31,149 bases of DNA from a virus. Below are positions 14,881-31,149 of this stretch, piece after piece. The position numbers were made by a program, and so were the translations under genes. Under the pieces are notes generated by a model. It saw nothing but the letters and a program-made list of their open reading frames with translations. It was not told the DNA's origin and made no database searches. Each line of letters starts with the position of its first letter. The stretch's first letter is position 1. The stretch lies in UHGV virus genome UHGV-0093339; one strand, given 5' to 3'.

Positions 14881-16450
14881 TTACACCACGCGGGCTTCTG
14901 TTTCCAGAAGCGCATCAGTTTCACGGATTGGTACACCACGGAATGAAGTCCACCACTCGCCTTCTGTCTCTTTTACGCTGATCGCCAGAGATGTTTTCTC
15001 CAGAGATTGCAGATCAAGAGCCTGGCCTACAGTGCGGTTCATGTAGAACACCGGGCGACCCATGCCACGGTTTGGAATTCGATGCAGTGCTTTAACCATC
15101 AACTTCGCAATATTTGCGGCAGAGGAAGGTTCTGAAAGATTGCTGACATCGATGTTTGCAATGCGAACAACATAACGCCAGTCACGCAGAGCAAGTCCGT
15201 TATCCCATTTGTAATGGGTGCGATAGCCTTCGTACTTGCCGCCATTAGCATCTTCCAGTGTCACCTGGCCTTTATCTTCCATCTGGATGCCAGCCTTCTG
15301 CCCTTTCGGGAAGATGCCATGCACGGTGTTTTCGCCCCACACCACTAACCAGATTGAGGTGTTATCTGTACCCGTGCCACCAGCATCAATGATGTTCTGA
15401 GCATTACCCGCAGACAGGCTGGAATAGCGGGAGGACAGTCCCATAAACTGCTGAGGGTTAACGCTGGAATCACCATAAAACAGCGTCTGCGCCATCTGCT
15501 GATTCATCGCTTCAATAAATGCGCGGTCTTCAGACAGGCGGAATTCGGCGGTATTGCCGTTCAGATCAGCCAGTGACTTATCGACTTCAGCATAGGTTTC
15601 CAGCATGCCCACGGAATCGGTTACCCGGGCATGATGATCCATAAACATCTTCGCCGTTAACTTCCCAGCGCGGAGCCATAATTGGAAACTCATCGAATCC
15701 GGACTCACGCAACAACTTGTCGTTATCGCCACCAACCTCGTAATAAACCGATTTGAATGGCTTGTTCTTGCTATCCAGCTTCGATGTATCGCGGTCAATG
15801 TTCGGGTAAACCGAATGCATCACTTCAATCCACTTCTCGTAGGTGCCGCTTTCCCACATGCTTTTTACGGATTCGCTGACGTTATTTAGCCCGAACTCCT
15901 GAACAAGCTGACGAACAGTCATAGCGAACTTGCGAAAACAGGTGTCCACACTGCCACGAGGTGAGTTAGCCAGGTAGTAACTGCCTATCGGGAATGGCAT
16001 TGTGCGAATGATGTCCTCGTCATCTTCCAGCACTGCCATTGCACCAGTGCTGTATGTGCCGAGGCTTCCGTATAACTGCGGCAGCGACTGATAGAGATTC
16101 GACTTATTGAACATATCGTTCATGCGGTTCTGCACCGCCTCAAGCCACAACTTAACAGGGCCATAATCCATCATTTCAGGATCTGGCGTAGCCAGGCGAA
16201 ACCACGGACGCGCGGGGCTTGTGATGCCTGACACCATGCCGCTGGCGAGAGTGCGCGCCGCCATAGTCCCGGTCGAATCAATAATGCGTGTATTGCGTCG
16301 ATCGTTACGGTTGACCTCAGAAGTCAGAAAGCGGGAACCACGCGGGTTGATGTAATCACTCAACTCGCGCCAGTGCGGCTCGAACGACTGACGCTCGCTT
16401 TCAAGTTGTGCGAACTGTTTGTTCAATCGCTCTTTAGTTGTTTCCGCCAT
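14881..16450 (-). pseudogene. portal-like head gene split between two reading frames near 15620-15650
   Basis: ORF-track 15587..16450 and 14881..15798 overlap by about 70 codons in different frames; protein-like sequence ends in one frame at ...PRWEVNGEDVYG and resumes in the other at ...ARVTDSVGMLETYAEV; N-terminus and the GE(D/S)YG region resemble the T7 portal from memory; the listed start of the second ORF is a TTG. Confidence 0.45.
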
Positions 16451-16761: not shown

Positions 16762-16776
16762 TTACCTTTCAGGTAA
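16762..16776. promoter_or_regulatory. operator-like dyad TTACCTTTCAGGTAA upstream of the head operon
   Basis: Perfect TTACC-N5-GGTAA; a TTGACA hexamer on the plus strand lies at 16740-16745. Confidence 0.4.
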
Positions 16777-19316: not shown

Positions 19317-19945
19317 TGATTACCATCCTGACGTTCTTTGAGTCGCTTCCTGGCTGCTGCTATGCGATCAGCAATTGTCACATTCACATTAACATCCAGG
19401 CGTTCTTTGAATGCGTTGACGTCGACGTGCTTACCGATGAGCTCGAGGTTTTTCACCTTGTCGGGCCATTTCACCTTCTTCAGGATATGCTCGACATCCT
19501 CAACAGAGAGATCCGCCTCGCCATTCTCTTTTTGCAGGGAAGCCTGGGTTGTCTTGATGGTAGCGATATCCATAGCACTGAGAGAGGTACGCCAGACCTT
19601 CGGCCATTCAGCGATCGGCTTCATCCCGCCGTCATCGTTCAGTATATCCAGCACGTCCATCTGGTCTATTTCCACCAGGCGCATGAGAACGTAATCAGCA
19701 CTGACGCGCATTCGTTTGTTGCGCTCCTCCATCAACTCGGCAATCCGTTTTTGAATGCGTTCATCGCGCATCATGACACTGGCTTTAACTGCCGCTGTAT
19801 TTGGGGAGAATCCTGCATTAATCGCTGCCTGAGTCTGGTTTTCAGGCGTTTTGATGTATGACTGGCAATAAGCCTCCTGCATTGCTGTTAGTGGCTTAAA
19901 TTGCGTTGATTTGCGTTTATAGGTTTTAGGTTCAGCAGGCATCAT
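19313..19945 (-). CDS. terS: terminase small subunit
   Basis: ORF-track 19313..20023 (listed start is a TTG) trimmed to the ATG at 19945; sits immediately upstream of terL; resembles small-terminase proteins from memory. Confidence 0.65.
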   Translation of the reverse strand: MMPAEPKTYKRKSTQFKPLTAMQEAYCQSYIKTPENQTQAAINAGFSPNTAAVKASVMMRDERIQKRIAELMEERNKRMRVSADYVLMRLVEIDQMDVLDILNDDGGMKPIAEWPKVWRTSLSAMDIATIKTTQASLQKENGEADLSVEDVEHILKKVKWPDKVKNLELIGKHVDVNAFKERLDVNVNVTIADRIAAARKRLKERQDGNQ

Positions 19946-19952
19946 AACCACC

Positions 19953-19984
19953 GTGGTAATAGTTACCGTTGTGGTAATAGTACC
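19953..19984. repeat. tandem 14-bp repeats GTGGTAATAGT(T)ACC upstream of terS
   Basis: Two near-identical copies at 19953-19967 and 19971-19984; each has internal dyad symmetry (GGTAA-TAG-TTACC and TGGTA-ATAG-TACCA). Confidence 0.5.
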
Positions 19985-19986
19985 AT

Positions 19987-20014
19987 GCAAAATAAAGCCG
20001 CCATAGTTGGCGGC
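19987..20014 (-). terminator. intrinsic terminator upstream of the packaging genes
   Basis: gccgcc-aactat-ggcggc hairpin followed on the minus strand by TTTATTTT. Confidence 0.55.
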
Positions 20015-20063
20015 AGTATTCAAAACCCATCAAATTCATCATGCATAATCTACTCGTGACATG

Positions 20064-20402
20064 TCACACTATTAATTTCGTTTCATGCCAGCCTTTAGTC
20101 ACCCAGCATTGCGAGTCACCATTACACGGGCATGAATTCACAGGAACTCTCTCGCCGCACTTACCGCAACGTTTTCTGCTGATCGATTTTATACGCCCGT
20201 GCGCGCGAGCATCATCCTGGCGGATAAGTAACGCAATATACTCACCAAATTCGTAAGGCACACGCCCGGGGCGACGCGTGGCGCAGTTCCGCTCCAGCAT
20301 TTCAATTTCCTGAGCATCAAGCACAATCTCCAGCTTACGTACACCGGATGCAGCTTGTCTGGCTCTCTGAGCGGCTTTGCGCTCTGCTGCTGATTTAGCC
20401 AT
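20064..20402 (-). CDS. hypothetical Cys-rich protein (112 aa), possible late-gene regulator
   Basis: ORF-track; basic N-terminal helix plus C-terminal cluster CGKCGERVPVNSCPCNGDSQC; sits directly upstream of the terminator and the terS repeats. Confidence 0.5.
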   Translation of the reverse strand: MAKSAAERKAAQRARQAASGVRKLEIVLDAQEIEMLERNCATRRPGRVPYEFGEYIALLIRQDDARAHGRIKSISRKRCGKCGERVPVNSCPCNGDSQCWVTKGWHETKLIV

Positions 20403-20760
20403 TCTGATTTTCCTGCATCATGAGAAATACAATCATGGCGGCTCGGAGGGGATTTTCATGTATAGCTCGCTTAGATTTACAGTAGGCCACACCGCGTGCA
20501 CCCCACTCGTCTTCATCGAGATTGATAATGCTAATCCTGTATTTTTCAATAATCGGCCATGCGTCTGCTGGGTTTGCGCATGGGTTAAAGGATCCGCGCT
20601 CAACTTCTACTTCAACTGCGTCTCCGTTTACAATGTCTCCCTCAAATGAGACAAACACCATATCGCCATTCTCACCTTCTTTGTAATCCGGTGATCCGTT
20701 ATGAATGGCTTCGAATACCGCCACGTTAATTTCAAAATCACTTAACTGTGAATAGTCCAT
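20395..20760 (-). CDS. hypothetical protein (121 aa), possibly DUF2591/NinX-like
   Basis: ORF-track 20395..20763 trimmed to the second ATG, which overlaps the upstream stop; N-terminus MDYSQLSDFEIN recalled from lambdoid nin-region proteins; family name uncertain. Confidence 0.5.
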   Translation of the reverse strand: MDYSQLSDFEINVAVFEAIHNGSPDYKEGENGDMVFVSFEGDIVNGDAVEVEVERGSFNPCANPADAWPIIEKYRISIINLDEDEWGARGVAYCKSKRAIHENPLRAAMIVFLMMQENQNG

Positions 20761-21944
20761 CACTTAACCTCCTGCTGCGGTGCTGCTGGCATTTCACGCC
20801 AGTGCGTAACTGAGTGCGGATCCGGATATTCGGTGCCATCATCCCAGCGATTGCCATTCCACATTGCAGACCACATCTCACCGTCTTCATACATGACCAT
20901 TACCGGAATTAACTTATCCGGCATTCGCTCACTACAGCTTATCCAACCATCCGGAATTACCGGAGAGTTGCCATTTACCAAGTCAGCTCGAACATATAGC
21001 GTGTCATCATGGTGCTGATTGTGGCTGCACCATGTTAATTCGCTTAACTCGCCATCTTCTGGCCATACTCCAGCTGTTTGCAGCCAGATATGGGCTGGCG
21101 CATCCTGGCAAGGTGTATTAACTGGAAACTTGTAAGTTTGGCTTACAGGTTGGCTACCCTGAAGCATGGCAGCGTGGCAGGCATACTCAACGCCCTTAAC
21201 TGCATCTGCGCAGTAGTTATAGCGATTGCATTCCACTAATTTCCGTTTGAGTTTTTCAATTGCCTGCGCGACATCAGCCTGTATTACAGGAACTGGCGGA
21301 ACGGCTGTTTGCTCTCGAACGTCATTAGTCGCTATCGGTTCTGCTGCCAACTGACTGGCATATTTGTTAATGGTAACGATAAGCTCTTGCTCAGCCTCAT
21401 CCAGACAATCACCGATACCTCGCCTGTCACCGTCAAAATCATCGAAATCGGCACGAATCTTGGCAACCTTCAGGATTGCGGACAACACCTCACTAGGAAT
21501 TACCGGATAGTTGGTTGACGTTTCCGCGATTTCCCGAAAATTATTGGTTGACGAATTCTTGTTTTCCCGAAAGTTTCCGGACTGAAGCATGGCGGCGCGA
21601 TAGGCGTTCCAGCCGACAGCTTTTCCGTGTTCAAACGCGCTGTCAAAGTCATCATCAATTTCCATCGCAGCGGGCACAGATACCGGCGCCGGATGGGCGG
21701 TGTACAAGCGAGTTCCATCCTTGAAGTTTTCCCAATCAGCCTGTCCATCAGCGGCTATGCACACCACCTTCGCATCCGGGTGGCATCCGCAATCGTCATA
21801 CTCACCGAGGACAACCTCGCCAACAGCCTCCGCTTCGAGCAATGCCAGCGCGATACGCGCCAGCTCTGCAATTTCTTCGCCGAGAATAGCCCCGACATTT
21901 TCACGTCTGGATAATTCCGTCAGTCTCTCTTTGGTGAATGTCAT
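20760..21944 (-). CDS. DUF551 domain protein with Ea22-like N-terminal region
   Basis: ORF-track; GGAGG RBS; C-terminal segment ...WISCSERMPDKLIPVMV...THWREMPAAP resembles DUF551 from memory. Confidence 0.55.
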   Translation of the reverse strand: MTFTKERLTELSRRENVGAILGEEIAELARIALALLEAEAVGEVVLGEYDDCGCHPDAKVVCIAADGQADWENFKDGTRLYTAHPAPVSVPAAMEIDDDFDSAFEHGKAVGWNAYRAAMLQSGNFRENKNSSTNNFREIAETSTNYPVIPSEVLSAILKVAKIRADFDDFDGDRRGIGDCLDEAEQELIVTINKYASQLAAEPIATNDVREQTAVPPVPVIQADVAQAIEKLKRKLVECNRYNYCADAVKGVEYACHAAMLQGSQPVSQTYKFPVNTPCQDAPAHIWLQTAGVWPEDGELSELTWCSHNQHHDDTLYVRADLVNGNSPVIPDGWISCSERMPDKLIPVMVMYEDGEMWSAMWNGNRWDDGTEYPDPHSVTHWREMPAAPQQEVK

Positions 21945-24572: not shown

Positions 24573-24635
24573 TCACCCATAAGGTAACAAAAATCAAGGA
24601 TAGTTACCCATGGGGTGCATTTACCTGTTGGGTAA
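24573..24635. promoter_or_regulatory. OR-like operator cluster, three dyads between the divergent Cro-like and CI-like genes
   Basis: Sites at 24573-24587 (tCACC-cataa-GGTAA), 24604-24618 (TTACC-catgg-GGTgc) and 24621-24635 (TTACC-tgttg-GGTAA); a leftward TTGATT -35 candidate at 24597-24592. Confidence 0.6.
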
Positions 24636-24690: not shown

Positions 24691-25275
24691 ATGAAAAGTA
24701 TCCAGGACGTCCGCAGGCAAAATCTCAACGACTTGATCGACCGTGAATTCAATGGTGTTCAGACGCGGATGGCAGAAAAACTTGGAACTCAGGCAAATCT
24801 GGTAAACCGCTGGGCTCTTGGCAAGAAGGTTATCGGCGACCAGGTTGCGCGAAAAATTGAAGCTGCCGCCAATAAACCCCGTAACTGGCTTGATATCGAT
24901 CGCTCGCTTTCTCAGGAAGGTTTTCAGCCTGTCGGACCAAGCGACATTGGTCAACTGGCGGCTCACAACCTGGAACGCTGGATGAGCGAAAGCCGCGACC
25001 TTTCAACACAGGGAAAACTTCACCGCGCATCCGGCGTCGCCCAGGTGACAATCAGCCGCCTGTTAAACAATGAGGTCAGCGTTTCCATTTCCACCCTGGA
25101 GAATGTTGCATCCGCATTCGGGCGTCACGGCTATGAATTACTGATTCACCCGCACGACCCTGCGACCATCAACTATGACCGCTCGCGCTACGCATTGTTA
25201 CCCGAAACCGAGAAAGCAAAGATCGAAAGTTACATTGAATTTGTCATCAACCAGAACGAAAAAAACAAACAATAA
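24691..25275 (+). CDS. CI-like prophage repressor with two HTH domains and no peptidase domain
   Basis: ORF-track; two XRE-type HTH-like segments (QTRMAEKLGTQANLVNRWALGKK and LHRASGVAQVTISRLLNNEVSVS); no Ser/Lys autocleavage module seen; flanked by operator clusters and followed by a terminator. Confidence 0.6.
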   Translation: MKSIQDVRRQNLNDLIDREFNGVQTRMAEKLGTQANLVNRWALGKKVIGDQVARKIEAAANKPRNWLDIDRSLSQEGFQPVGPSDIGQLAAHNLERWMSESRDLSTQGKLHRASGVAQVTISRLLNNEVSVSISTLENVASAFGRHGYELLIHPHDPATINYDRSRYALLPETEKAKIESYIEFVINQNEKNKQ

Positions 25276-25297
25276 AATCATACTTTTCAGTAAGTAA

Positions 25298-25320
25298 GCC
25301 GCCTTCTGGCGGCTTTTTTA
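25298..25320 (+). terminator. intrinsic terminator after the repressor gene
   Basis: gccgcc-ttct-ggcggc hairpin followed by TTTTTTT. Confidence 0.7.
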
Positions 25321-25332
25321 CTGCCTGTTCGA

Positions 25333-25409
25333 TTACCTGTCGGGTAATTTTTTTAACTCATATCTATTGACATCAAACCAAATACGAATAATCATTACCT
25401 CAACGGTAA
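25333..25409 (+). promoter_or_regulatory. PL-like early promoter with two flanking dyad operators
   Basis: Perfect dyads at 25333-25347 (TTACC-tgtcg-GGTAA) and 25395-25409 (TTACC-tcaac-GGTAA) bracket TTGACA at 25367-25372 and an A/T-rich -10 region around 25387-25395. Confidence 0.6.
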
Positions 25410-25428
25410 CAAACCGAGGTAACAAGTT

Positions 25429-25581
25429 ATGCAGTGGAAAATCATCAACGGTTGGTACTGCGTTACTGCATGCGGATTCATGAGCTGGAAGTTCCGCACC
25501 TTACAGGAAGGTATTAAGTGGGCTTTCGTCAGCAAAGAAGCTCGCGATGTGGCCAACGATAACGAGATATGGGAGGGCTGA
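25429..25581 (+). CDS. hypothetical early small protein (50 aa)
   Basis: Read by hand: ATG at 25429 after GAGGT, stop TGA at 25579-25581; translation MQWKIINGWYCVTACGFMSWKFRTLQEGIKWAFVSKEARDVANDNEIWEG; first gene after the PL-like promoter. Confidence 0.45.
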   Translation: MQWKIINGWYCVTACGFMSWKFRTLQEGIKWAFVSKEARDVANDNEIWEG

Positions 25582-25583
25582 TA

Positions 25584-25883
25584 ATGAACGTTAATCAGCA
25601 GAAAAATCTTCAAAAAATCATGCTGGCATTCGACAAGGACTACCGCCTGTCAGAACAGCTATATGACCGACAAGTTGAACTGATCGAAAGCATCCGGCTT
25701 CATCAACTGGCCTCAACTTTTGACGCTGTAACAGTTAAAGGCGTTCGCCAGGAAGTGCTGGAGGCAGCTAAAGACAGCCCTGAGTTCGAAGAACTGATGG
25801 ATGCCTACCGGCGCGAGGCAATGGCAATTATCGCCCGCTGGGATCTGGCGGATCGGATTGATGGGCAGAGGGAAGCGGCATGA
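25584..25883 (+). CDS. hypothetical early protein (99 aa)
   Basis: ORF-track 25569..25883 trimmed to the ATG at 25584, 2 nt after the upstream stop; stop overlaps the exonuclease start. Confidence 0.55.
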   Translation: MNVNQQKNLQKIMLAFDKDYRLSEQLYDRQVELIESIRLHQLASTFDAVTVKGVRQEVLEAAKDSPEFEELMDAYRREAMAIIARWDLADRIDGQREAA

Positions 25884-26701
25884 AACCGGGAATTTATTTC
25901 GACATCAGCAACGAAGACTACCACGCCGGTGACGGCGTGAGTAAGTCGCAACTGGACATGGTTGCCAAGAATCCGGCGCTTCTTAAATGGGTTCAGGCAG
26001 CACCAGAAGACGAAGAGAAAAAGTCTGCACTGGATATGGGAACCGCATTGCACTGTCTGCTTCTGGAACCTGGAGAATTCGACAAACGCTTCATCGTTTC
26101 ACCGAAATTCGATCGTCGGACAAAACAAGGTAAAGCTGACGAAGAAGCATTTCTTCGTGATGTGGCGGATATGGGTATTACGGTACTTGATGTCGAGCAG
26201 TGGCGAAAACTGGAGCTGATGCGTGATAGCGCAATGGCTCATCCGGCGGCACGCTGGATGTTGGAAGCACCTGGTTACTGCGAAGCATCAATGTACTGGA
26301 ACGATGAAGATACGGGTGAGTTGTGCCGAATTCGTCCAGACAAATGGCTGAACGAGCACAACGTGATCGTCGACGTGAAAAAGGTTGCAGATATGGACCG
26401 TTTTGCACGTCACATCGAGGAATTCCGCTACCACGTGCAGGACGCAATGTACCGCGAAGGCGCAATGAGAGTTACTGGTCAGCCGCATGGTTTTTTCTTT
26501 CTTGCCGTGAGCGAAAGCATTGATTGTGGTCGGTATCCGGTACGCGTGTTCGAGCTGGATGCGCCGGATGTCGATGCCGGGCACGCTCTGTTCCGCCGGG
26601 ATCTGAATACCTATCACGAATGCCGCATCAACGATGAATGGGGCGGTGTGGAAATCATTAAACGCCCTGAGCGGGCACGCAAACAGGATATGTACATATG
26701 A
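25880..26701 (+). CDS. PD-(D/E)xK-type exonuclease, recombination partner of the RecT-like protein
   Basis: ORF-track; GAGGGAAG RBS; putative catalytic motifs IRPD and IVDVKK; ATGA overlap with the recombinase gene. Confidence 0.65.
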   Translation: MKPGIYFDISNEDYHAGDGVSKSQLDMVAKNPALLKWVQAAPEDEEKKSALDMGTALHCLLLEPGEFDKRFIVSPKFDRRTKQGKADEEAFLRDVADMGITVLDVEQWRKLELMRDSAMAHPAARWMLEAPGYCEASMYWNDEDTGELCRIRPDKWLNEHNVIVDVKKVADMDRFARHIEEFRYHVQDAMYREGAMRVTGQPHGFFFLAVSESIDCGRYPVRVFELDAPDVDAGHALFRRDLNTYHECRINDEWGGVEIIKRPERARKQDMYI

Positions 26702-27639
26702 GCAACGACATCGCAAACATCAACGCACCAGTAGACACAGCAATCGCTGGAACTGCTGCAACTATTTTCAGCCCAGACGGCTTGAACCAACTGATGAAAT
26801 TCGCCGAGGTAATGGCGCAAAGCCGCGTAACGGTACCGGCGCACCTCGCCGGGAAACCAGCTGATTGCATGGCCGTGGCAATGCAGGCTGCGCAGTGGGG
26901 AATGAACCCGTTTGCCGTGGCTCAGAAAACCCATGTTGTGAACGGCACGCTAGGTTATGAAGCCCAATTAGTAAACGCAGTTATCTCAACGATGTCGCCA
27001 ACAAAAGATCGCATCAACTACGAGTGGTTCGGGCCGTGGGAACGCGTGATCGGTAAGTTTGTTGAGAAAACATCCAAAAACGGCAATCCATATATCGCAC
27101 CAGGCTGGACTCTAAAAGACGAAGAAGGCTGCGGTGTTCGCGTATGGGCAACCATGAAGGGCGAGGATCAACCTCGAGTGCTTGAGTTAATGCTGTCTCA
27201 AGCACAGGTAAGAAACTCCACACTTTGGGCCAGTGATCCGAAACAACAACTCGCATACCTTGCGACAAAACGCTGGTCTCGCCTGCACTGTCCTGACGTA
27301 ATCATGGGCGTCTACACCCCAGACGAATTACAGGAAACGGCACCGCGCGTTGAGCGAGACATTACTCCGCAAACGACCACTGCTGCGGGAATGAACAGTC
27401 TGATCAACGCTAAACCAGCGAAAAAGCCTGATGAGCAAACGCGTAAAGCGGATAGCCGTGATCCAGAAGAAATGCTGATGGCCTTTACCAGCGCAGCGAT
27501 GAATTACAGCACTGTCTCCGAACTGGATAAGGCTTACAAATACATTGCACAAAAACTTTCAGATGATGACGAACTGCTGGCAAAAGCCACCGACGTTTAC
27601 AGCGTTCGTCGGGAAGAATTAAACGAAACATCTATGTAA
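26698..27639 (+). CDS. single-strand annealing recombinase, Bet/RecT family
   Basis: Segment CMAVAMQAAQWGMNPF parallels lambda Bet (FIALLIVANQYGLNPW) and VERDITP parallels Bet PERDITP, from memory. Confidence 0.7.
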   Translation: MSNDIANINAPVDTAIAGTAATIFSPDGLNQLMKFAEVMAQSRVTVPAHLAGKPADCMAVAMQAAQWGMNPFAVAQKTHVVNGTLGYEAQLVNAVISTMSPTKDRINYEWFGPWERVIGKFVEKTSKNGNPYIAPGWTLKDEEGCGVRVWATMKGEDQPRVLELMLSQAQVRNSTLWASDPKQQLAYLATKRWSRLHCPDVIMGVYTPDELQETAPRVERDITPQTTTAAGMNSLINAKPAKKPDEQTRKADSRDPEEMLMAFTSAAMNYSTVSELDKAYKYIAQKLSDDDELLAKATDVYSVRREELNETSM

Positions 27640-27688
27640 CCACCACCGCGGCGACACGCGCGCCGCACTGCAACCAAGAGAGGTATTT

Positions 27689-27937
27689 ATGAAAGGTGCA
27701 TTAGGTAAGAAGGAACTCCTGGCGGTGGTGCCACTGTCATGGAGCACTATCGATCGTATGGAGCGCGCAGGTGAATTTCCTAAACGCTGGTATATCACTG
27801 ACAAACGCTGCGCATGGAACCGTGACGAAGTTGAGCGTTGGCTTGATGAACGTCAGGCAGCAAGCCCGGCAGAGTTCCAGGGTAAAAAGCCTCCTGTTCA
27901 GCAACGTGTATATCGTCCTGTGAGCAACGCTGCATGA
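27689..27937 (+). CDS. AlpA-family phage transcriptional regulator / excisionase-like protein
   Basis: 82-aa ORF; pattern LSWSTIDRMERAGEFPKR...WNRDEVERWL matches the AlpA/Vis family as I recall it. Confidence 0.7.
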   Translation: MKGALGKKELLAVVPLSWSTIDRMERAGEFPKRWYITDKRCAWNRDEVERWLDERQAASPAEFQGKKPPVQQRVYRPVSNAA

Positions 27938-28094
27938 GTGTGCTGCTAAGGCACTGGAGCAAATGGTCAGGATGGTACTTATTCCTGGCCTCTGTTTCAG
28001 CATGGCTTTATCTGCTGGCATTAATTTTAAGAGAGGGTTTGATTAAGTGAGAAAGTTAAGCCGACTTGAAAAATATCACATGAATAAGGTTTCA

Positions 28095-28346
28095 ATGCGT
28101 AGTCCGTCAAAGATTGTCGCCGTTACTCCTGCGGCGATAGAGATCGAAAAACGCGCGATTGAAAGAGAGAAAAAAGGGCAGTTCCGCATTGCCGCTCACC
28201 TTTGGCTTCAGTGTATGGATGTTGCTTCTGGTGATGTTGAACGTGCAAGGATCGCGGTTCGCAGGGACCAATGTATCACAAAAGGTAACGGCCTTCGCCG
28301 TGGCGACTATAGCGGCATAGGATGTTGTGGGGTGGTTTATGACTAA
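28095..28346 (+). CDS. PerC-family transcriptional regulator (Pch-like)
   Basis: ORF-track 28047..28346; start placed at the ATG at 28095 with AAGG upstream (28047 or 28080 also possible); segment IEREKKGQFRIAAHLWLQCM...RRDQC matches the PerC/Pch pattern from memory. Confidence 0.55.
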   Translation: MRSPSKIVAVTPAAIEIEKRAIEREKKGQFRIAAHLWLQCMDVASGDVERARIAVRRDQCITKGNGLRRGDYSGIGCCGVVYD

Positions 28347-28989
28347 GAAATACACACTAATCTATGCAGATCCACCCTGGGTATACCGGGACAAAGCCGC
28401 AGATGGTAATCGCGGGGCCGGTTTTAAATATCCGGTTATGAGTGTGCTGGATATCTGCCGCCTTCCTGTGTGGGATTTGGCCGATGAAAACTGTCTGTTG
28501 GCCATGTGGTGGGCGCCAACACAACCACTCGAAGCACTAAAAGTTGTTGAAGCCTGGGGATTCCGTCTGATGACCATGAAGGGCTTCACGTGGATAAAAT
28601 GTGGTAGTCGACAACCAGATAAACTGGTTATGGGTATGGGTCACATGACTCGCGCCAATAGTGAAGATTGCCTGTTTGCAGTAAAGGGAAAACTACCTAC
28701 GCGCATTAATGCAGGGATCGTTCAGTCATTTACCGCACCGCGGCTTGAGCATTCAAGAAAACCAGATATCGTTCGTGAAAAACTTGTGCAATTGTTAGGC
28801 GATGTTTCTCGCATTGAACTGTTCGCCCGCCAGTCGTCTCATGGTTTCGATGTTTGGGGTAATCAGTGCGAAGACCCGGCAGTGCAACTACACCCTGGAT
28901 ACGCGTTGGATATTGCCAGATTAACAAATGCATTCAGCAATGCTCCGCTGTCACCAACAGACAACCAGGGGCGGGAGCGTGCAGCATGA
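28339..28989 (+). CDS. MT-A70 family DNA adenine methyltransferase (orphan)
   Basis: ORF-track 28327..28989 trimmed to the ATG at 28339; DPPW motif in [10 protein letters not shown]; no adjacent restriction endonuclease gene. Confidence 0.7.
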
Positions 28990-29645
28990 ACCTATATCAA
29001 CGCATCAATGGCGCTGACTGGTGCAATATCTTCGTCGTCGGCGATCTGCATGGGTGCTACACGCTGCTGATGAACGAACTCGACAAAGTTTCATTCGACC
29101 CGGCGCGCGATTTGCTTATTTCCGTTGGTGACCTTGTTGACCGCGGCGCTGAAAACGTCGAATGCCTGGATTTGATTACTATGCCGTGGTTCCGAGCTGT
29201 TCGTGGCAACCATGAGCAGATGATGCTGGATGCACTGGTCAACGGCGGAAGTTTCGGACATTGGATGTCAAACGGCGGTGGATGGTGGCACCAACTTGAT
29301 TCTGAGCAGGATGTGCAACTCAAATACCTTCTGCCAAAGGTTACCAACCTCCCGATGATTATCGAACTGGTTACCGGCAATAAGAAGGTCGTCATCTGCC
29401 ACGCAGACTACCCGCACAACGAATACGCATTCGATAAGCCAGTACCGGAAGAAATGGTGATATGGAATCGTGAGCGGGTTAGCGACGCGCAGGACGGTAT
29501 TGTCTCGGAGATAACCGGTGCCGATTTGTTCATCTTCGGTCATACGCCAGCACATCACCCACTGGTGTATGCAAACCAAATGTACATCGACACCGGCGCA
29601 GTGTTCTGCGGAAATCTGACGCTTACCAAAGTCCAGGAAGGATAG
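28986..29645 (+). CDS. Ser/Thr protein phosphatase (lambda-type metallophosphoesterase)
   Basis: ORF-track 28866..29645 trimmed to the ATG at 28986, which overlaps the methyltransferase stop; motifs GDLHG, GDLVDRG and GNHE. Confidence 0.75.
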
Positions 29646-29647
29646 AA

Positions 29648-30904
29648 TTATTTATTACTGTCTTCCATCCACTTCTCAAACTTCGACGGGGAGAACGGAA
29701 TCAGATCCGTATGCTCCCCGTCAATCCAGGAATCAATCATATCTGCCCACTGCTGCAACATGTAGGCGCGCTGTCTGGCGTATTCCGCTTTGTTATATAC
29801 GGCGCGCACACCTTTCTGCTCATGTGCCAGAGCCTTTTCAATCCAGTCTGAAGGATAACCAGCCTCATGCAATAACGTACTGGCTGTACGGCGCATATCG
29901 TGTACGGTGAAGTCCTGAATATGCTCACCATTTTCATTTATTATTTTCACCGTTCTGTCGATCAGAGAGTTCAGCGCGGCATTAGATAATGGCTTCCGGA
30001 AGTTGTAACGACCAGGAACCAGATATTCACTTCCACCAGCGCACATCTGCAGCCCGACCAATATATCCTGTGCCTGTTTAGGCAGGTAAATAACGTGCGC
30101 CCGGCTTCCCTTCATGCGGTCTGAAGGAATTGTCCATGTCCATTTTTTAAAATCTATTTCATCCCACGTTGCATTGGTGAACTCGCCTTTACGAACCATA
30201 GTGATAAGCACCAGCTTTAAAGCCATTTTCATAGTGCCCATAGCACCAATGGCATCCAGCGTGCGGAAGAACAGGCCAATTTCTTCTGGTGTCAGTGTTC
30301 GCTCTCTTGGTTTAAATATGGCGATAGACGAAGGTTTAATGTCAGCCGCAGGATTAAACAAACCATGACCACGGTCATTGGCGTGACGGTATACGCTGCT
30401 GATGATCTCCCTTGCCTGTACTGCTGTTGCCCGACCACCGCGTTCGACAATCCGGTCACACAAATCACGAACCATCGATGTGGTAATTTCAGTCATCATT
30501 TTGTTGCCAAGAACTGGAAGTATGTCACGGTCGATCACCGCCTGCTTCATTGCGCGGGTACTGTCAGCCAGGATGACGTGTTTCATATAACTGTCGGTAT
30601 GTACCGTAAACGTCTCGGCACCACGAATCTTTTTGATACCGTCACGTTTAGCCGCAGCCGGTGACTGGCCTGCTTTAAGCAGCTTCTTTGCAGCAATCAG
30701 TTCTTCTCGCGCTTCTGCCAGGCTGATACCGTCACGCCCATACTGCCCGATTACCAGTGTTTCGCGGCGACCGTTGATACGGTAGTCATAGCGAAACGAG
30801 ACCGTACCTGACGTAAGCACAGCTACATACAGCCCGTCACGATCGGAAACTTTGTACAGTTTGTCCTGTGGCTTGAGGTTCTTTAATTTTGTATCGGTAA
30901 GCAC
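29648..30904 (-). CDS. int: site-specific tyrosine integrase (P4-like)
   Basis: 418-aa ORF with GTG start preceded by GGGTGA; C-terminal catalytic region with HDMRRT...LAHEQKGVRAVY (His/Arg/Tyr); convergent with the early operon at the right end of the element. Confidence 0.8.
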   Translation of the reverse strand: MLTDTKLKNLKPQDKLYKVSDRDGLYVAVLTSGTVSFRYDYRINGRRETLVIGQYGRDGISLAEAREELIAAKKLLKAGQSPAAAKRDGIKKIRGAETFTVHTDSYMKHVILADSTRAMKQAVIDRDILPVLGNKMMTEITTSMVRDLCDRIVERGGRATAVQAREIISSVYRHANDRGHGLFNPAADIKPSSIAIFKPRERTLTPEEIGLFFRTLDAIGAMGTMKMALKLVLITMVRKGEFTNATWDEIDFKKWTWTIPSDRMKGSRAHVIYLPKQAQDILVGLQMCAGGSEYLVPGRYNFRKPLSNAALNSLIDRTVKIINENGEHIQDFTVHDMRRTASTLLHEAGYPSDWIEKALAHEQKGVRAVYNKAEYARQRAYMLQQWADMIDSWIDGEHTDLIPFSPSKFEKWMEDSNK

Positions 30905-30946
30905 AATTCACCCGTATAGAAACCATTTTCATGACGGTATGAGAGT

Positions 30947-30961
30947 ATACCTTTAAGGTAA
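30947..30961. promoter_or_regulatory. operator-like dyad ATACCTTTAAGGTAA upstream of int, nested in a longer inverted repeat
   Basis: One mismatch to TTACC-N5-GGTAA; flanked by tgacggtat / ataccgtca inverted arms (30932-30969); about 45 nt upstream of the int start. Confidence 0.4.
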
Positions 30962-31028
30962 TACCGTCACCTGTACCGCCAAAAAATATGGTGTAGAGTG
31001 AATAGAAATGAATACATAAAAACAAAAA

Positions 31029-31048
31029 CCCTCTGCAAAAACAGAGGG
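31029..31048. terminator. GC-rich hairpin, possibly a bidirectional terminator
   Basis: ccctctg-caaaaa-cagaggg flanked by A/T runs on both sides. Confidence 0.35.
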
Positions 31049-31149
31049 TTGAATTAGTATCTGAATAGGAATGAGTTGCTATGAGTTAGCTGTTAATCAT
31101 TCCCACTCAATGGTAGCTGGCGGCTTGCCGCTGATGTCATACACCACGC

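Follow-up and report, generated by a model that had tools for sequence, protein, structure and literature searches.

Do the three small genes lying between the recombination genes and the integrase of this prophage form a lysogenic-conversion cassette able to influence host virulence, or do they belong to the early program of the phage itself? The question arises in a window of 31,149 nucleotides (the whole stretch of viral DNA analyzed, UHGV-0093339), in which positions 28047-29645 of the + strand encode a PerC-family protein, an MT-A70 methyltransferase and a lambda-type Ser/Thr phosphatase. The reading which we regard as probable, including the gene roles proposed below, is that the three genes and their setting represent the last, promoter-distal part of the early-left operon in a prophage of the phiV10/epsilon15 type (Uetakevirus) located beside guaA in E. 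coli ML35.

Identity and Distribution of the Block

A phiV10/epsilon15-like prophage adjoining guaA in E. coli ML35 matches the window with 100% identity, and phiV10-like phages do so with ~98% DNA identity. This level of identity holds for phiV10 p36-p31, which encode AlpA, a membrane protein, a PerC-family activator, an adenine methylase, a DUF1382 protein and the integrase. The AlpA, 38-aa, PerC-like, MT-A70 and convergent integrase genes occur in the same order, on the same strand and with the same overlaps in phiV10 and epsilon15 (gp33-gp29), although epsilon15 has a 35-aa ORF between the PerC-like and methyltransferase genes and a 60-aa gene adjoining int, neither of which arrangements is found in the window.

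The first-pass annotation had placed the three genes on the + strand and assigned them to the PerC-like, MT-A70 and lambda-type phosphatase families, and both placement and names are borne out by Pfam and by alignment with lambda NinI. The overlapping stop and start codons which it described are also present: the PerC-like ORF, with its TAA stop at 28344-28346, overlaps by 8 nt the methyltransferase gene, which starts with ATG at 28339, while an ATGA at 28986-28989 is common to the methyltransferase stop and the phosphatase start. Likewise, int is convergent, ends 2 nt past the phosphatase stop and is followed by guaA at the window end. An Rfam scan of 25000-31149 matched no family and, in PADLOC, neither the PerC-like protein nor the phosphatase matched a defence system.

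The three genes are thus real and correctly named, but ordinary and already annotated: RefSeq gives all three the same family names in ML35, as does the phiV10 record for its PerC-like and methylase genes. The significance of the locus is small, as these names are already in RefSeq and the block, in either of its cassette versions, is present in 534 of 5,426 complete E. coli genomes (about a tenth). The useful yield consists of corrections: a probable new start for the PerC-like gene, a 38-aa ORF missing from the annotation, the assignment of the block to a repressed early operon and a caution over the meaning of the PerC family label.

Table 1. Features of the probable early-left operon and of its surroundings (positions in the window).
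Feature	Position	Strand	Basis
Terminator-like hairpin after the repressor-like HTH gene	25296..25315	+	8-bp stem, 6 G-C pairs, then T run
Promoter-like site and flanking palindromes, early-left operon	25333..25409	+	TTGACA-17-AATCAT at 25367-25395
PD-(D/E)XK recombination exonuclease gene	25880..26701	+	Pfam DUF3799, 77 bits
RecT recombinase gene	26698..27639	+	Pfam RecT, 151.9 bits
AlpA-family excisionase/regulator gene	27689..27937	+	Phage_AlpA, 24.2 bits; PHROG 66 'excisionase and transcriptional regulator'
38-aa membrane ORF	27934..28050	+	PHROG 17484, residues 1-38 of 38, E 2e-24
PerC-family small protein	28047..28346	+	99 aa from GTG 28047, or 83 aa from ATG 28095
MT-A70-family N6-adenine methyltransferase, 216 aa, no partner nuclease	28339..28989	+	PF05063, 80.7 bits
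Lambda NinI-type Ser/Thr protein phosphatase, 219 aa	28986..29645	+	Metallophos, 58.9 bits; PHROG 246 'NinI-like'
P4-type tyrosine integrase, convergent with the operon	29648..30904	-	Arm-DNA-bind_3, Phage_int_M and Phage_integrase domains

Position in a Probable Early-Left Operon

The block is the end of a longer series of genes (Table 1). All neighboring genes from the AlpA-like gene through the phosphatase gene overlap, and the coupled chain begins upstream of the three-gene block, which contains no intergenic gap. The 38-aa membrane ORF, which is without annotation in ML35 and is homologous to phiV10 p35 and epsilon15 gp32, overlaps both the AlpA-like stop (ATGA) and the PerC-like GTG start (GTGA). 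The epsilon15 homologue of the AlpA-like gene is annotated as an excisionase. Further upstream, the exonuclease gene, named PD-(D/E)XK nuclease-like protein in RefSeq, overlaps the recT start by ATGA.

The only sigma-70-like + strand site upstream of the block in a consensus scan lies at 25367-25395, downstream of a terminator-like hairpin at whose equivalent position a terminator is annotated in phiV10. This promoter-like site has a TTACC-N5-GGTAA palindrome on either side (25333-25347 and 25395-25409). The window contains 11 copies of the motif, with 0.41 expected, and those at 24573 and 24621 fall in the repressor/cro-like intergenic region, which suggests that these palindromes are operators. 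From 25400 to 29645, a simple + strand scan, which is consensus-level only and could miss a weak internal promoter, returned no promoter-like or terminator-like site, and folding of the phosphatase/int junction was no better than that of shuffled sequences (z = -0.98). Since there is one promoter, bearing palindromes such as those of the immunity region, and no other site, the three genes have the appearance of repressed early lytic genes.

Transcription would start at a repressor-controlled promoter near 25367-25395, probably running through two small ORFs and the exonuclease, RecT, AlpA/Xis-like, 38-aa, PerC-like, methyltransferase and phosphatase genes before ending head-on against int. The three products would be made early after infection or induction and not in the stable lysogen. 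The block had been described as occupying a typical lysogenic-conversion position, a view which does not fit this arrangement: a lysogenic-conversion moron has a promoter and a terminator of its own, the consensus scan found neither for the block, and the operon promoter is flanked by operator-like palindromes. As judged from the sequence, the block is probably not a self-promoted conversion cassette but the distal part of an early-left operon with operators at its promoter. In epsilon15, the gene in the slot adjoining int carries a serotype-conversion factor annotation, so expression in the lysogen from the end of this operon is possible in some relatives.

This organization is reminiscent of phage lambda. 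The lambda equivalent of the operon would be the pL operon, and that of its tail the exo-xis region (orf60a, orf63, orf61, ea22 and ea8.5), whose small genes lie, as here, between the recombination genes and xis/int and are described as early, conserved and non-essential. Lambda Orf63 and Orf60a correspond to DUF1382 and DUF1317, respectively (PMC10695390), and homologues from these families sit in the corresponding operon tail of phiV10-like phages, including phiV10 and sister prophages, and of the Stx phage PA28. Compared with lambda, the window has lost the orf60a-like and orf63-like genes and has the PerC-like, MT-A70 and phosphatase genes instead. Moreover, int is convergent in the window, whereas it is co-directional in lambda.

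Start and Family of the PerC-Like Protein

The 83-aa PerC-like protein predicted by the first-pass annotation, and also by RefSeq, from ATG 28095 probably lacks its first residues. In epsilon15, Leu and Gln codons stand in place of the two internal Met codons, and the ORF begins at the site equivalent to GTG 28047; in the window, a GAGGG Shine-Dalgarno sequence is located 9 nt before this codon. The first 16 codons differ from those of epsilon15 by 6 synonymous and 5 non-synonymous changes, and PHROG 868 matches residues 1-99 of 99. From these comparisons, GTG 28047, giving a protein of 99 aa, is most likely the start.

Family assignment relies on a short core. Pfam PerC (PF06069) matches with 30.1 bits (cut-off 22.6), residues 35-80 aligning with profile positions 5-50 of 90, and the epsilon15 homologue scores 24.2 bits; the ANR family gives a below-cut-off match over the same core. 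Within it, A37, E41, A49, W53 and C76 are invariant in two alignments. An AlphaFold2 model contains four helices (6-18, 28-43, 46-59 and 63-82) and lacks a helix-turn-helix. A fold search with this model, used only to describe the protein as helical with no helix-turn-helix, gave nothing at E <= 0.001, the best matches being MIT/TPR-like bundles at E ~0.3-0.6, and a sequence search against solved structures gave nothing meaningful. The protein would belong to the PerC/ANR group as a small member consisting of helices only. The gene was present in every epsilon15-like phage examined, and 134 close homologues were found with identity down to 55%, those with a named source all coming from Enterobacterales.

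Relationship to the LEE Activators

The similarity to PerC and Pch proposed initially holds for the core and fails beyond it. The PerC-like protein shares 40% identity over 60 aa with EPEC PerC (pMAR2; pairwise E 2e-10) and 40% over 40 aa, restricted to the core, with a Pch-type protein of E. coli O26, the latter sequence being taken from a partial phage record. EPEC PerC and the O26 protein are themselves 47% identical over 87 aa. The ~45-residue core, which bears the motif LE.KG.YR.AA..W ... ER ... R..C, is shared with EPEC PerC and with Pch group 1 of EHEC, which activate LEE1 and counteract H-NS, while the C-terminal stretch of 25-40 residues which PerC and Pch have in common is missing and replaced by an unrelated tail. 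This tail (DYSGIG..GVVYD) is specific to epsilon15-like phages, and the PerC-like protein also has a 32-residue N-terminal extension. The genomic setting of the EPEC PerC and Pch genes is also unlike that of the window. When EPEC PerC was used as a query for Pch genes, the protein search returned 3 matches and the DNA search only pEAF plasmids, while a scan of viral contigs returned none.

These features bear on the proposal that the block is a lysogenic-conversion cassette whose PerC-like protein switches on the LEE genes of the host as PerC and PchABC do. Membership of the Pfam PerC family, the 40% identity of the core to that of EPEC PerC, the conversion-type gene adjoining int in epsilon15 and the occurrence of the block in O26 strains, which carry the LEE, speak for it. 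The subfamily is nevertheless kept in phages of Salmonella, Klebsiella, Enterobacter and Erwinia, hosts which are not known to carry the LEE; the block has no promoter of its own in the scan, the operon promoter has operator-like sites, and both the missing C-terminal segment and the distinct N-terminal extension separate the protein from PerC and Pch group 1. Only these proteins are LEE activators, divergent relatives such as PchD, PchE and the PerC-like proteins of phage-inducible islands (PICI) being inactive or repressing (PMC6265319, PMC11773190). LEE activation is unsupported because only the ~45-residue core is shared and the C-terminal part of PerC/Pch is missing, and the proposal of a conversion cassette acting on the LEE appears very improbable. 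A PerC family label should therefore not be equated with LEE activation.

What the protein does for the phage can be approached from its relatives. Pch is an anti-H-NS factor (PMC4764244), and characterized PerC/ANR relatives loosen H-NS silencing or act by protein-protein contact rather than as classical DNA-binding activators. Phage-directed regulation would be the likeliest job of the PerC-like protein.

The MT-A70 Methyltransferase

The second gene of the block appears to encode an intact enzyme. The PF05063 match covers the full profile (positions 1-172 of 172), YADPPW is found at residues 9-14 with the catalytic motif IV (DPPW, 11-14) intact, and the closest solved structures are MT-A70 family proteins of the ciliate MTA1 type and METTL3. 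PADLOC matched it to a type II methyltransferase model. As first proposed, it has no cognate nuclease: its neighbors are the PerC-like and phosphatase genes, and a restriction endonuclease is absent from the RefSeq annotation of the prophage stretch viewed.

Its closest studied relatives are enzymes of Stx2 phages. Over residues 1-187, it is 82% identical to gp05 of the Stx phage PA28, an enzyme of the M.EcoPA8orf6770P type, and M.EcoPA8orf6770P/M.EcoGV share its DPPW motif. Mutation of this motif to APPA abolished the function of the Stx-phage homologue, and the relative M.EcoGV methylated GATC in vivo when overproduced (PMC10810198); many similar enzymes are labelled GATC-specific in REBASE. 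The genetic context is also comparable, as the Stx2-phage gene also belongs to an exo-xis-type region close to int, its start is overlapped by a small gene and, in relatives, a DUF1382 gene lies downstream. In epsilon15-like prophages of Erwinia and Kosakonia, the methyltransferase slot is occupied by an unrelated Dam-family enzyme (PF05869), which points to a shared role in DNA methylation. The window enzyme may thus be viewed as an active-looking, Dam-like N6-adenine methyltransferase which most probably acts on replicating phage DNA.

A different target is conceivable. The closest studied methyltransferase is reported to favor 16S rRNA once it has bound a small partner protein (PMC10810198), which conflicts with a simple reading as a DNA-acting Dam. 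Under this alternative, the window enzyme would act mainly on 16S rRNA and tune spontaneous prophage induction, as reported for M.EcoPA8orf6770P of the Stx phage PA8. The 82% identical catalytic core and the published data on the holoenzyme, which cover both its 16S rRNA preference and its effect on induction frequency (PMC10810198), are consistent with this possibility, although the paper does not say which rRNA base is modified. In contrast, PNB-2, the partner needed for 16S rRNA activity, is absent from the window. The alignment with the Stx-phage enzyme stops at residue 187, and the C-terminal ~27-29 residues, proposed to bind PNB-2, are unrelated in the two enzymes. PNB-2 itself, a 62-aa protein encoded upstream of the Stx-phage enzyme, belongs to no Pfam family and is unrelated to the PerC-like protein: the two were considered as homologues, and BLASTP against PA28 gp06, taken as PNB-2 from gene order, gave no alignment at E <= 100. 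With a Dam-family enzyme filling the slot in sister prophages as a further argument against it, a principal action on 16S rRNA seems unlikely. The exchange of MT-A70 and Dam enzymes in one slot in turn bears on the disagreement over whether the Stx-phage MT-A70 enzymes act on DNA or on rRNA.

PerC-Domain Genes and DNA-Modification Genes

A more specific role of the PerC-like protein is also conceivable. It might be a dedicated partner or regulator of the adenine methyltransferase, either an accessory subunit like PNB-2 or a controller of its expression, the pair forming one module. The 8-nt overlap of the two genes, and the presence of a PerC-like gene upstream of an adenine methyltransferase gene in all 10 of the epsilon15-like loci inspected, even where Dam replaces MT-A70, suggest such a link, as does the 82%-identical Stx-phage enzyme, which binds the product of the small gene immediately preceding its own in a 1:1 complex (PMC10810198). 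The methyltransferase C-terminal tail also differs between the PNB-2-linked and PerC-linked types.

Similar associations are found outside the epsilon15-like phages. In a second PerC subfamily, represented by YfdN of the K-12 prophage CPS-53 and by SfV orf40, 72 of 80 loci show an overlap between the PerC-domain gene and a gene for Dam (PF05869), the PerC-domain stop overlapping the N6-adenine methyltransferase start in YfdN-YfdM and orf40-dam as in the window. These systems differ from the present one by an N-terminal winged-helix domain on the PerC-domain protein, by a partner of the Dam rather than MT-A70 family and by a location after the replication genes, not near int. In a third subfamily, a ParB-like gene comes next, sometimes followed by a DpdA-like gene. 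Fusions of PerC to methyltransferases were considered as further evidence of linkage; only rare, single-member PerC+Dam and PerC+RusA fusions were found, and they were not counted because they are probably frameshift or deletion products.

Several observations weigh against a dedicated pair. PNB-2 and the PerC-like protein have no sequence similarity, most epsilon15-like phages have one to three genes (DUF1317, NinX, a 180-aa ORF) between the PerC-like and methyltransferase genes, and 8 of the 80 YfdN-type loci lack Dam. The genes for PerC, Pch and the PerC protein of the N4-like phage Pollock have no methyltransferase neighbor, and other phage MT-A70 genes are preceded by unrelated small ORFs. 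For the distant MT-A70 genes of HK639, Klebsiella phage 2 LV-2017, PEp14 and a Mannheimia phage, no PerC domain was found upstream. Furthermore, the loci within each PerC subfamily are closely related, so these counts are not independent. We therefore think it doubtful that the PerC-like protein is a dedicated methyltransferase partner. The broader proposition, that PerC-domain proteins of temperate phages are dedicated partners or controllers of phage DNA-modification enzymes rather than general virulence regulators, the LEE-activating PerC and Pch being a later offshoot, is equally tenuous. If true, the PerC-like and MT-A70 proteins would together form either an enzyme of two components or a module that regulates itself, comparable to the PNB-2/M.EcoPA8orf6770P pair of Stx phages. 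The recurrence of PerC-domain genes upstream of phage DNA-modification genes can be kept as a speculative lead.

The NinI-Type Phosphatase and the Cassette Slot

The last gene of the block is the one which varies among relatives. In its place, phiV10 has a 64-aa DUF1382 (lambda orf63-like) gene, and the two versions have exact boundaries, the cassette starting just after a shared ATGAAC and ending in the last int codons. Among the 5,426 complete E. coli genomes, 143 carry the phosphatase version and ~390 the DUF1382 version. Judged from these alignments, only the slot between the methyltransferase gene and int behaves as a variable cassette site. The first-pass annotation had considered the block unnecessary for phage development and, for the phosphatase, this agrees with its replacement by the DUF1382 gene in phiV10 and in the ~390 E. 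coli prophages, and with the non-essential character of lambda ninI (PMC10695390).

The phosphatase aligns with lambda NinI (structure 1G5B) over 217 aa, without gaps and with 67% identity, and the metal-binding and catalytic motifs of the latter (GDLHG, GDLVDRG, GNHE, CHAD and GHT) are all conserved. With 266 bits against 326 for the NCBIfam equivalog PrpA and 221 against 332 for PrpB, it is, on these scores, a relative and not an orthologue of the chromosomal E. coli enzymes PrpA and PrpB. While lambda NinI is encoded in the nin region, between the replication genes and Q, the window gene closes the early-left operon, next to int. The nearest nin-region genes (HK225 and phi80) have only ~78% DNA identity to it. 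The window gene would represent a relocated, non-essential NinI orthologue carried in a swappable cassette slot.

Gene content of the block beside the integrase

The sequence comes from a phiV10/epsilon15-like (Uetakevirus) prophage adjoining guaA and matches the E. coli ML35 chromosome at 100% identity. Between 27689 and 29645, on the plus strand, five ORFs follow in a row, with stop and start codons overlapping at each junction. In Pfam, the PerC-like protein matches PF06069 at 30.1 bits (cut-off 22.6), the methyltransferase matches PF05063 at 80.7 bits over the entire profile, and the phosphatase ORF matches Metallophos at 58.9 bits. PHROGs are concordant (868, transcriptional activator; 359, DNA methyltransferase; 246, NinI-like phosphatase). 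These three family assignments are solid, and the ML35 RefSeq annotation already carries them ('PerC family transcriptional regulator', 'MT-A70 family methyltransferase', 'serine/threonine protein phosphatase'), as does the phiV10 record for the PerC-like and methylase genes.

Features of the early-operon tail and repeated palindromes (window numbering)
Feature	Position	Strand	Observation
AlpA-family excisionase/regulator gene	27689-27937	+	first of five overlapping ORFs
38-aa membrane ORF	27934-28050	+	ATGA overlap with AlpA-like stop; PHROG 17484
PerC-family ORF	28047-28346	+	GTGA overlap with 38-aa ORF; PF06069
MT-A70 methyltransferase gene	28339-28989	+	8-nt overlap with PerC-family ORF; PF05063
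Ser/Thr phosphatase gene	28986-29645	+	ATGA overlap with methyltransferase gene; Metallophos
P4-type integrase gene	29648-30904	-	ends 2 nt past phosphatase stop
TTACC-N5-GGTAA sites	230-244, 323-337, 1357-1371, 16762-16776, 19945-19977, 24573-24635, 25333-25409, 30947-30961

The first-pass annotation had described three translationally coupled genes next to a convergent integrase, and the families, the overlapping codons and the convergence are all observed. While gene identity and coupling thus hold, the roles in virulence regulation and lysogenic conversion that were read into them over-reach: the block, the accessory tail of a phage early operon, is ordinary and has been annotated before.

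The 38-aa membrane ORF, which is absent from the ML35 RefSeq annotation, is a homologue of phiV10 p35 and epsilon15 gp32 and bridges the AlpA-like and PerC-like genes. Elsewhere in the prophage, a tRNA-Arg gene lies at ~15647-15723 (L001:21647-21723 in the ML35 locus), between the portal/head and terminase genes. Two truncated pseudogenes according to RefSeq, one of DUF551 and one ead/Ea22-like, occupy ~19887-21026 (L001:25887-27026), where the prophage may have undergone partial decay.

Probable control of the early operon

Upstream of the block lie a repressor-like HTH gene and a terminator-like hairpin (25296-25315). A simple scan of the plus strand found a sole sigma-70-like site upstream, TTGACA-17-AATCAT at 25367-25395, and no further promoter-like or terminator-like site up to 29645. 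This site is bracketed by copies of a 15-bp palindrome, TTACC-N5-GGTAA, at 25333 and 25395; the divergent repressor/cro-like intergenic region has it too, at 24573 and 24621. The whole window holds 11 copies with at most one mismatch, against 0.41 expected by chance; four flank the immunity-region promoters, one is upstream of int and the rest are within or close to structural and late genes. We infer that the palindromes are operators and that the promoter-like site is the counterpart of lambda pL. The PerC-like/MT-A70/phosphatase block would then close, at its far end, a repressed early operon to which the exonuclease (25880-26701) and RecT (26698-27639) would also belong. These last two are separate genes overlapping by ATGA (25880-27639), while a single fused RecE-RecT protein (1,761 nt) is annotated in phiV10 (L002:1280-3040).

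The operon tail shows kinship with the exo-xis region of lambda, in which Orf63 is a DUF1382 and Orf60a a DUF1317 protein (PMC10695390). Both families are found at this end of the operon in phiV10, in sister prophages and in the Stx phage PA28. Exo-xis genes are described as early, conserved and non-essential. This setting weakens the notion that the block as a whole sits in a lysogenic-conversion position. A caveat to the early-operon reading comes from epsilon15, where the gene in the slot beside int is annotated as a serotype-conversion factor and has a gap of ~120 nt before it.

The operon and int converge at 29645-29648 with 2 nt between their stop codons, and neither scanning nor folding detected a terminator-like structure at this point; read-through past 29645 would be antisense to int.

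The phosphatase cassette

Aligned without gaps to lambda NinI (PDB 1G5B), the phosphatase shows 67% identity and retains all catalytic motifs; its scores against the NCBIfam models of the chromosomal enzymes PrpA and PrpB are below cut-off. Identity to phiV10 extends two codons (ATGAAC) into the downstream gene and picks up again in the last codons of int; between these points, phiV10 has a 64-aa DUF1382 gene where the present element has the 219-aa phosphatase, which is a cassette. Among 5,426 complete E. coli genomes, the methyltransferase-phosphatase-int junction is found in 143 and the DUF1382 version in ~390 (the 534 genomes with the block minus 143, in agreement with the two-piece matches listed). 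Outside the lineage, the closest phosphatase genes are those in the nin regions of HK225 and phi80 (~78% DNA identity), and ninI of lambda is non-essential (PMC10695390).

The PerC-like protein and LEE activation

Both RefSeq and the first-pass annotation start the PerC-like gene at ATG 28095 (83 aa), but several lines of comparison favour GTG 28047 (99 aa). The epsilon15 ORF begins with ATG exactly at the GTG position, while the window's two internal ATGs align with Leu and Gln, and a comparison with epsilon15 across the 16 extra codons shows six synonymous and five non-synonymous changes. GTG 28047 overlaps the stop of the 38-aa ORF and follows a Shine-Dalgarno sequence, GAGGG, 9 nt upstream. 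The PHROG 868 match spans residues 1-99 of 99, as do tblastn matches in Salmonella and Enterobacter BUCT554 phages; those in Tyrion and Klebsiella start at residue 3-4.

By Pfam, this protein is a true PerC family member. The proposed similarity to PerC/Pch stands, with 40% identity to EPEC PerC over 60 aa and to a Pch-type protein of E. coli O26 over 40 aa, but it is limited to the core. PerC and Pch share an additional C-terminal segment (47% over 87 aa) which the PerC-like protein lacks. It has instead two elements peculiar to epsilon15-like phages, a conserved N-terminal extension of 32 residues and the tail DYSGIG..GVVYD. The subfamily is tight (134 clusters, 55-99% identity), and its source-named members are all from Enterobacterales. 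A match to the ANR family over the same core is below cut-off (23.6 bits versus 32). The AlphaFold2 model (mean pLDDT 75.6, core 84-91) has four helices and no helix-turn-helix, and its fold matches, of MIT/TPR type, are insignificant. Pch works by relief of H-NS silencing (PMC4764244). LEE is activated only by PerC and Pch group 1; the effect of PchD, PchE and the PerC-like proteins of phage-inducible islands on it is nil or repressive (PMC6265319, PMC5931665, PMC11773190). Since published activation is confined to PerC and Pch group 1, the suggestion that this protein would activate LEE appears, from sequence comparison, unsupported: the C-terminal segment is missing and divergent relatives are inactive or repressing.

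The methyltransferase and DNA-modification neighbours

In METHYLTRANSFERASE (MT-A70 gene, 28339-28989), the DPPW motif is intact. The closest solved relatives of the protein are ciliate MTA1-type proteins and METTL3, and its residues 1-187 are 82% identical to the Stx2-phage enzyme (e.g. PA28 gp05), beyond which the two tails are unrelated. In the Stx-phage enzyme M.EcoPA8orf6770P, DPPW mutation abolishes the effect on spontaneous induction; the enzyme co-purifies 1:1 with PNB-2, a small protein encoded directly upstream, and in a SAM-consumption assay 16S rRNA is the preferred substrate of the complex (PMC10810198). Overproduced by itself, the near-identical M.EcoGV methylates DNA at GATC (PMC10810198), and many similar enzymes are labelled GATC-specific in REBASE. 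The window's small upstream protein is not a PNB-2 homologue.

The epsilon15-like prophages of Erwinia dacicola (L175:3484-4035) and Kosakonia (L176:4819-5373) carry a Dam-family gene (PF05869) in the slot that MT-A70 fills here, after the PerC-like and DUF1317 genes and before int. Since the two enzyme families are unrelated, the exchange suggests that MT-A70 and Dam supply the same service, which would most simply be adenine methylation of replicating phage genomes.

That the PerC-like protein is itself a partner or regulator of a DNA-modification enzyme is a lead which we consider improbable. It lies upstream of MT-A70 or Dam in 10/10 epsilon15-like loci inspected, YfdN-type genes pair with Dam in 72 of 80 IMG/VR loci (Dam being absent from the other 8), and a ParB-like gene is downstream in 74/75 loci of the Pantoea AH07-like subfamily, sometimes with a DpdA-like gene next, but the loci in each subfamily are close relatives and these counts are not independent. 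In K-12 YfdN-YfdM and SfV orf40-dam, the PerC-domain gene overlaps the start of the Dam PF05869 gene. Against this, other genes are often inserted between the PerC-like and methyltransferase genes; PerC, Pch and the PerC gene of Pollock (N4-like phage) have no DNA-modification neighbour, and the small ORFs upstream of other phage MT-A70 genes are unrelated.

AH07 gp46 represents a third PerC-domain subfamily (L008:2282-4906; L100-L174), in some loci of which the gene following the ParB-like one is queuine tRNA-ribosyltransferase-like (DpdA-like), an arrangement that presumably resembles a 7-deazaguanine DNA-modification module. YfdN and SfV orf40 carry a winged-helix domain, called from a MarR-type match of SfV orf40 that is weak and below cut-off, and a C-terminal PerC domain. 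The Dam gene overlapped by yfdN is truncated in K-12 (yfdN-yfdM, L009:8113-8882; SfV orf40-dam, L006:2210-3351). SfV 'dam' (L006:2698-3351) is named 'phosphoadenosine phosphosulfate reductase' in RefSeq, a product name that looks wrong given its matches to Pfam Dam PF05869 (156 bits) and PHROG 111 'DNA methyltransferase'.
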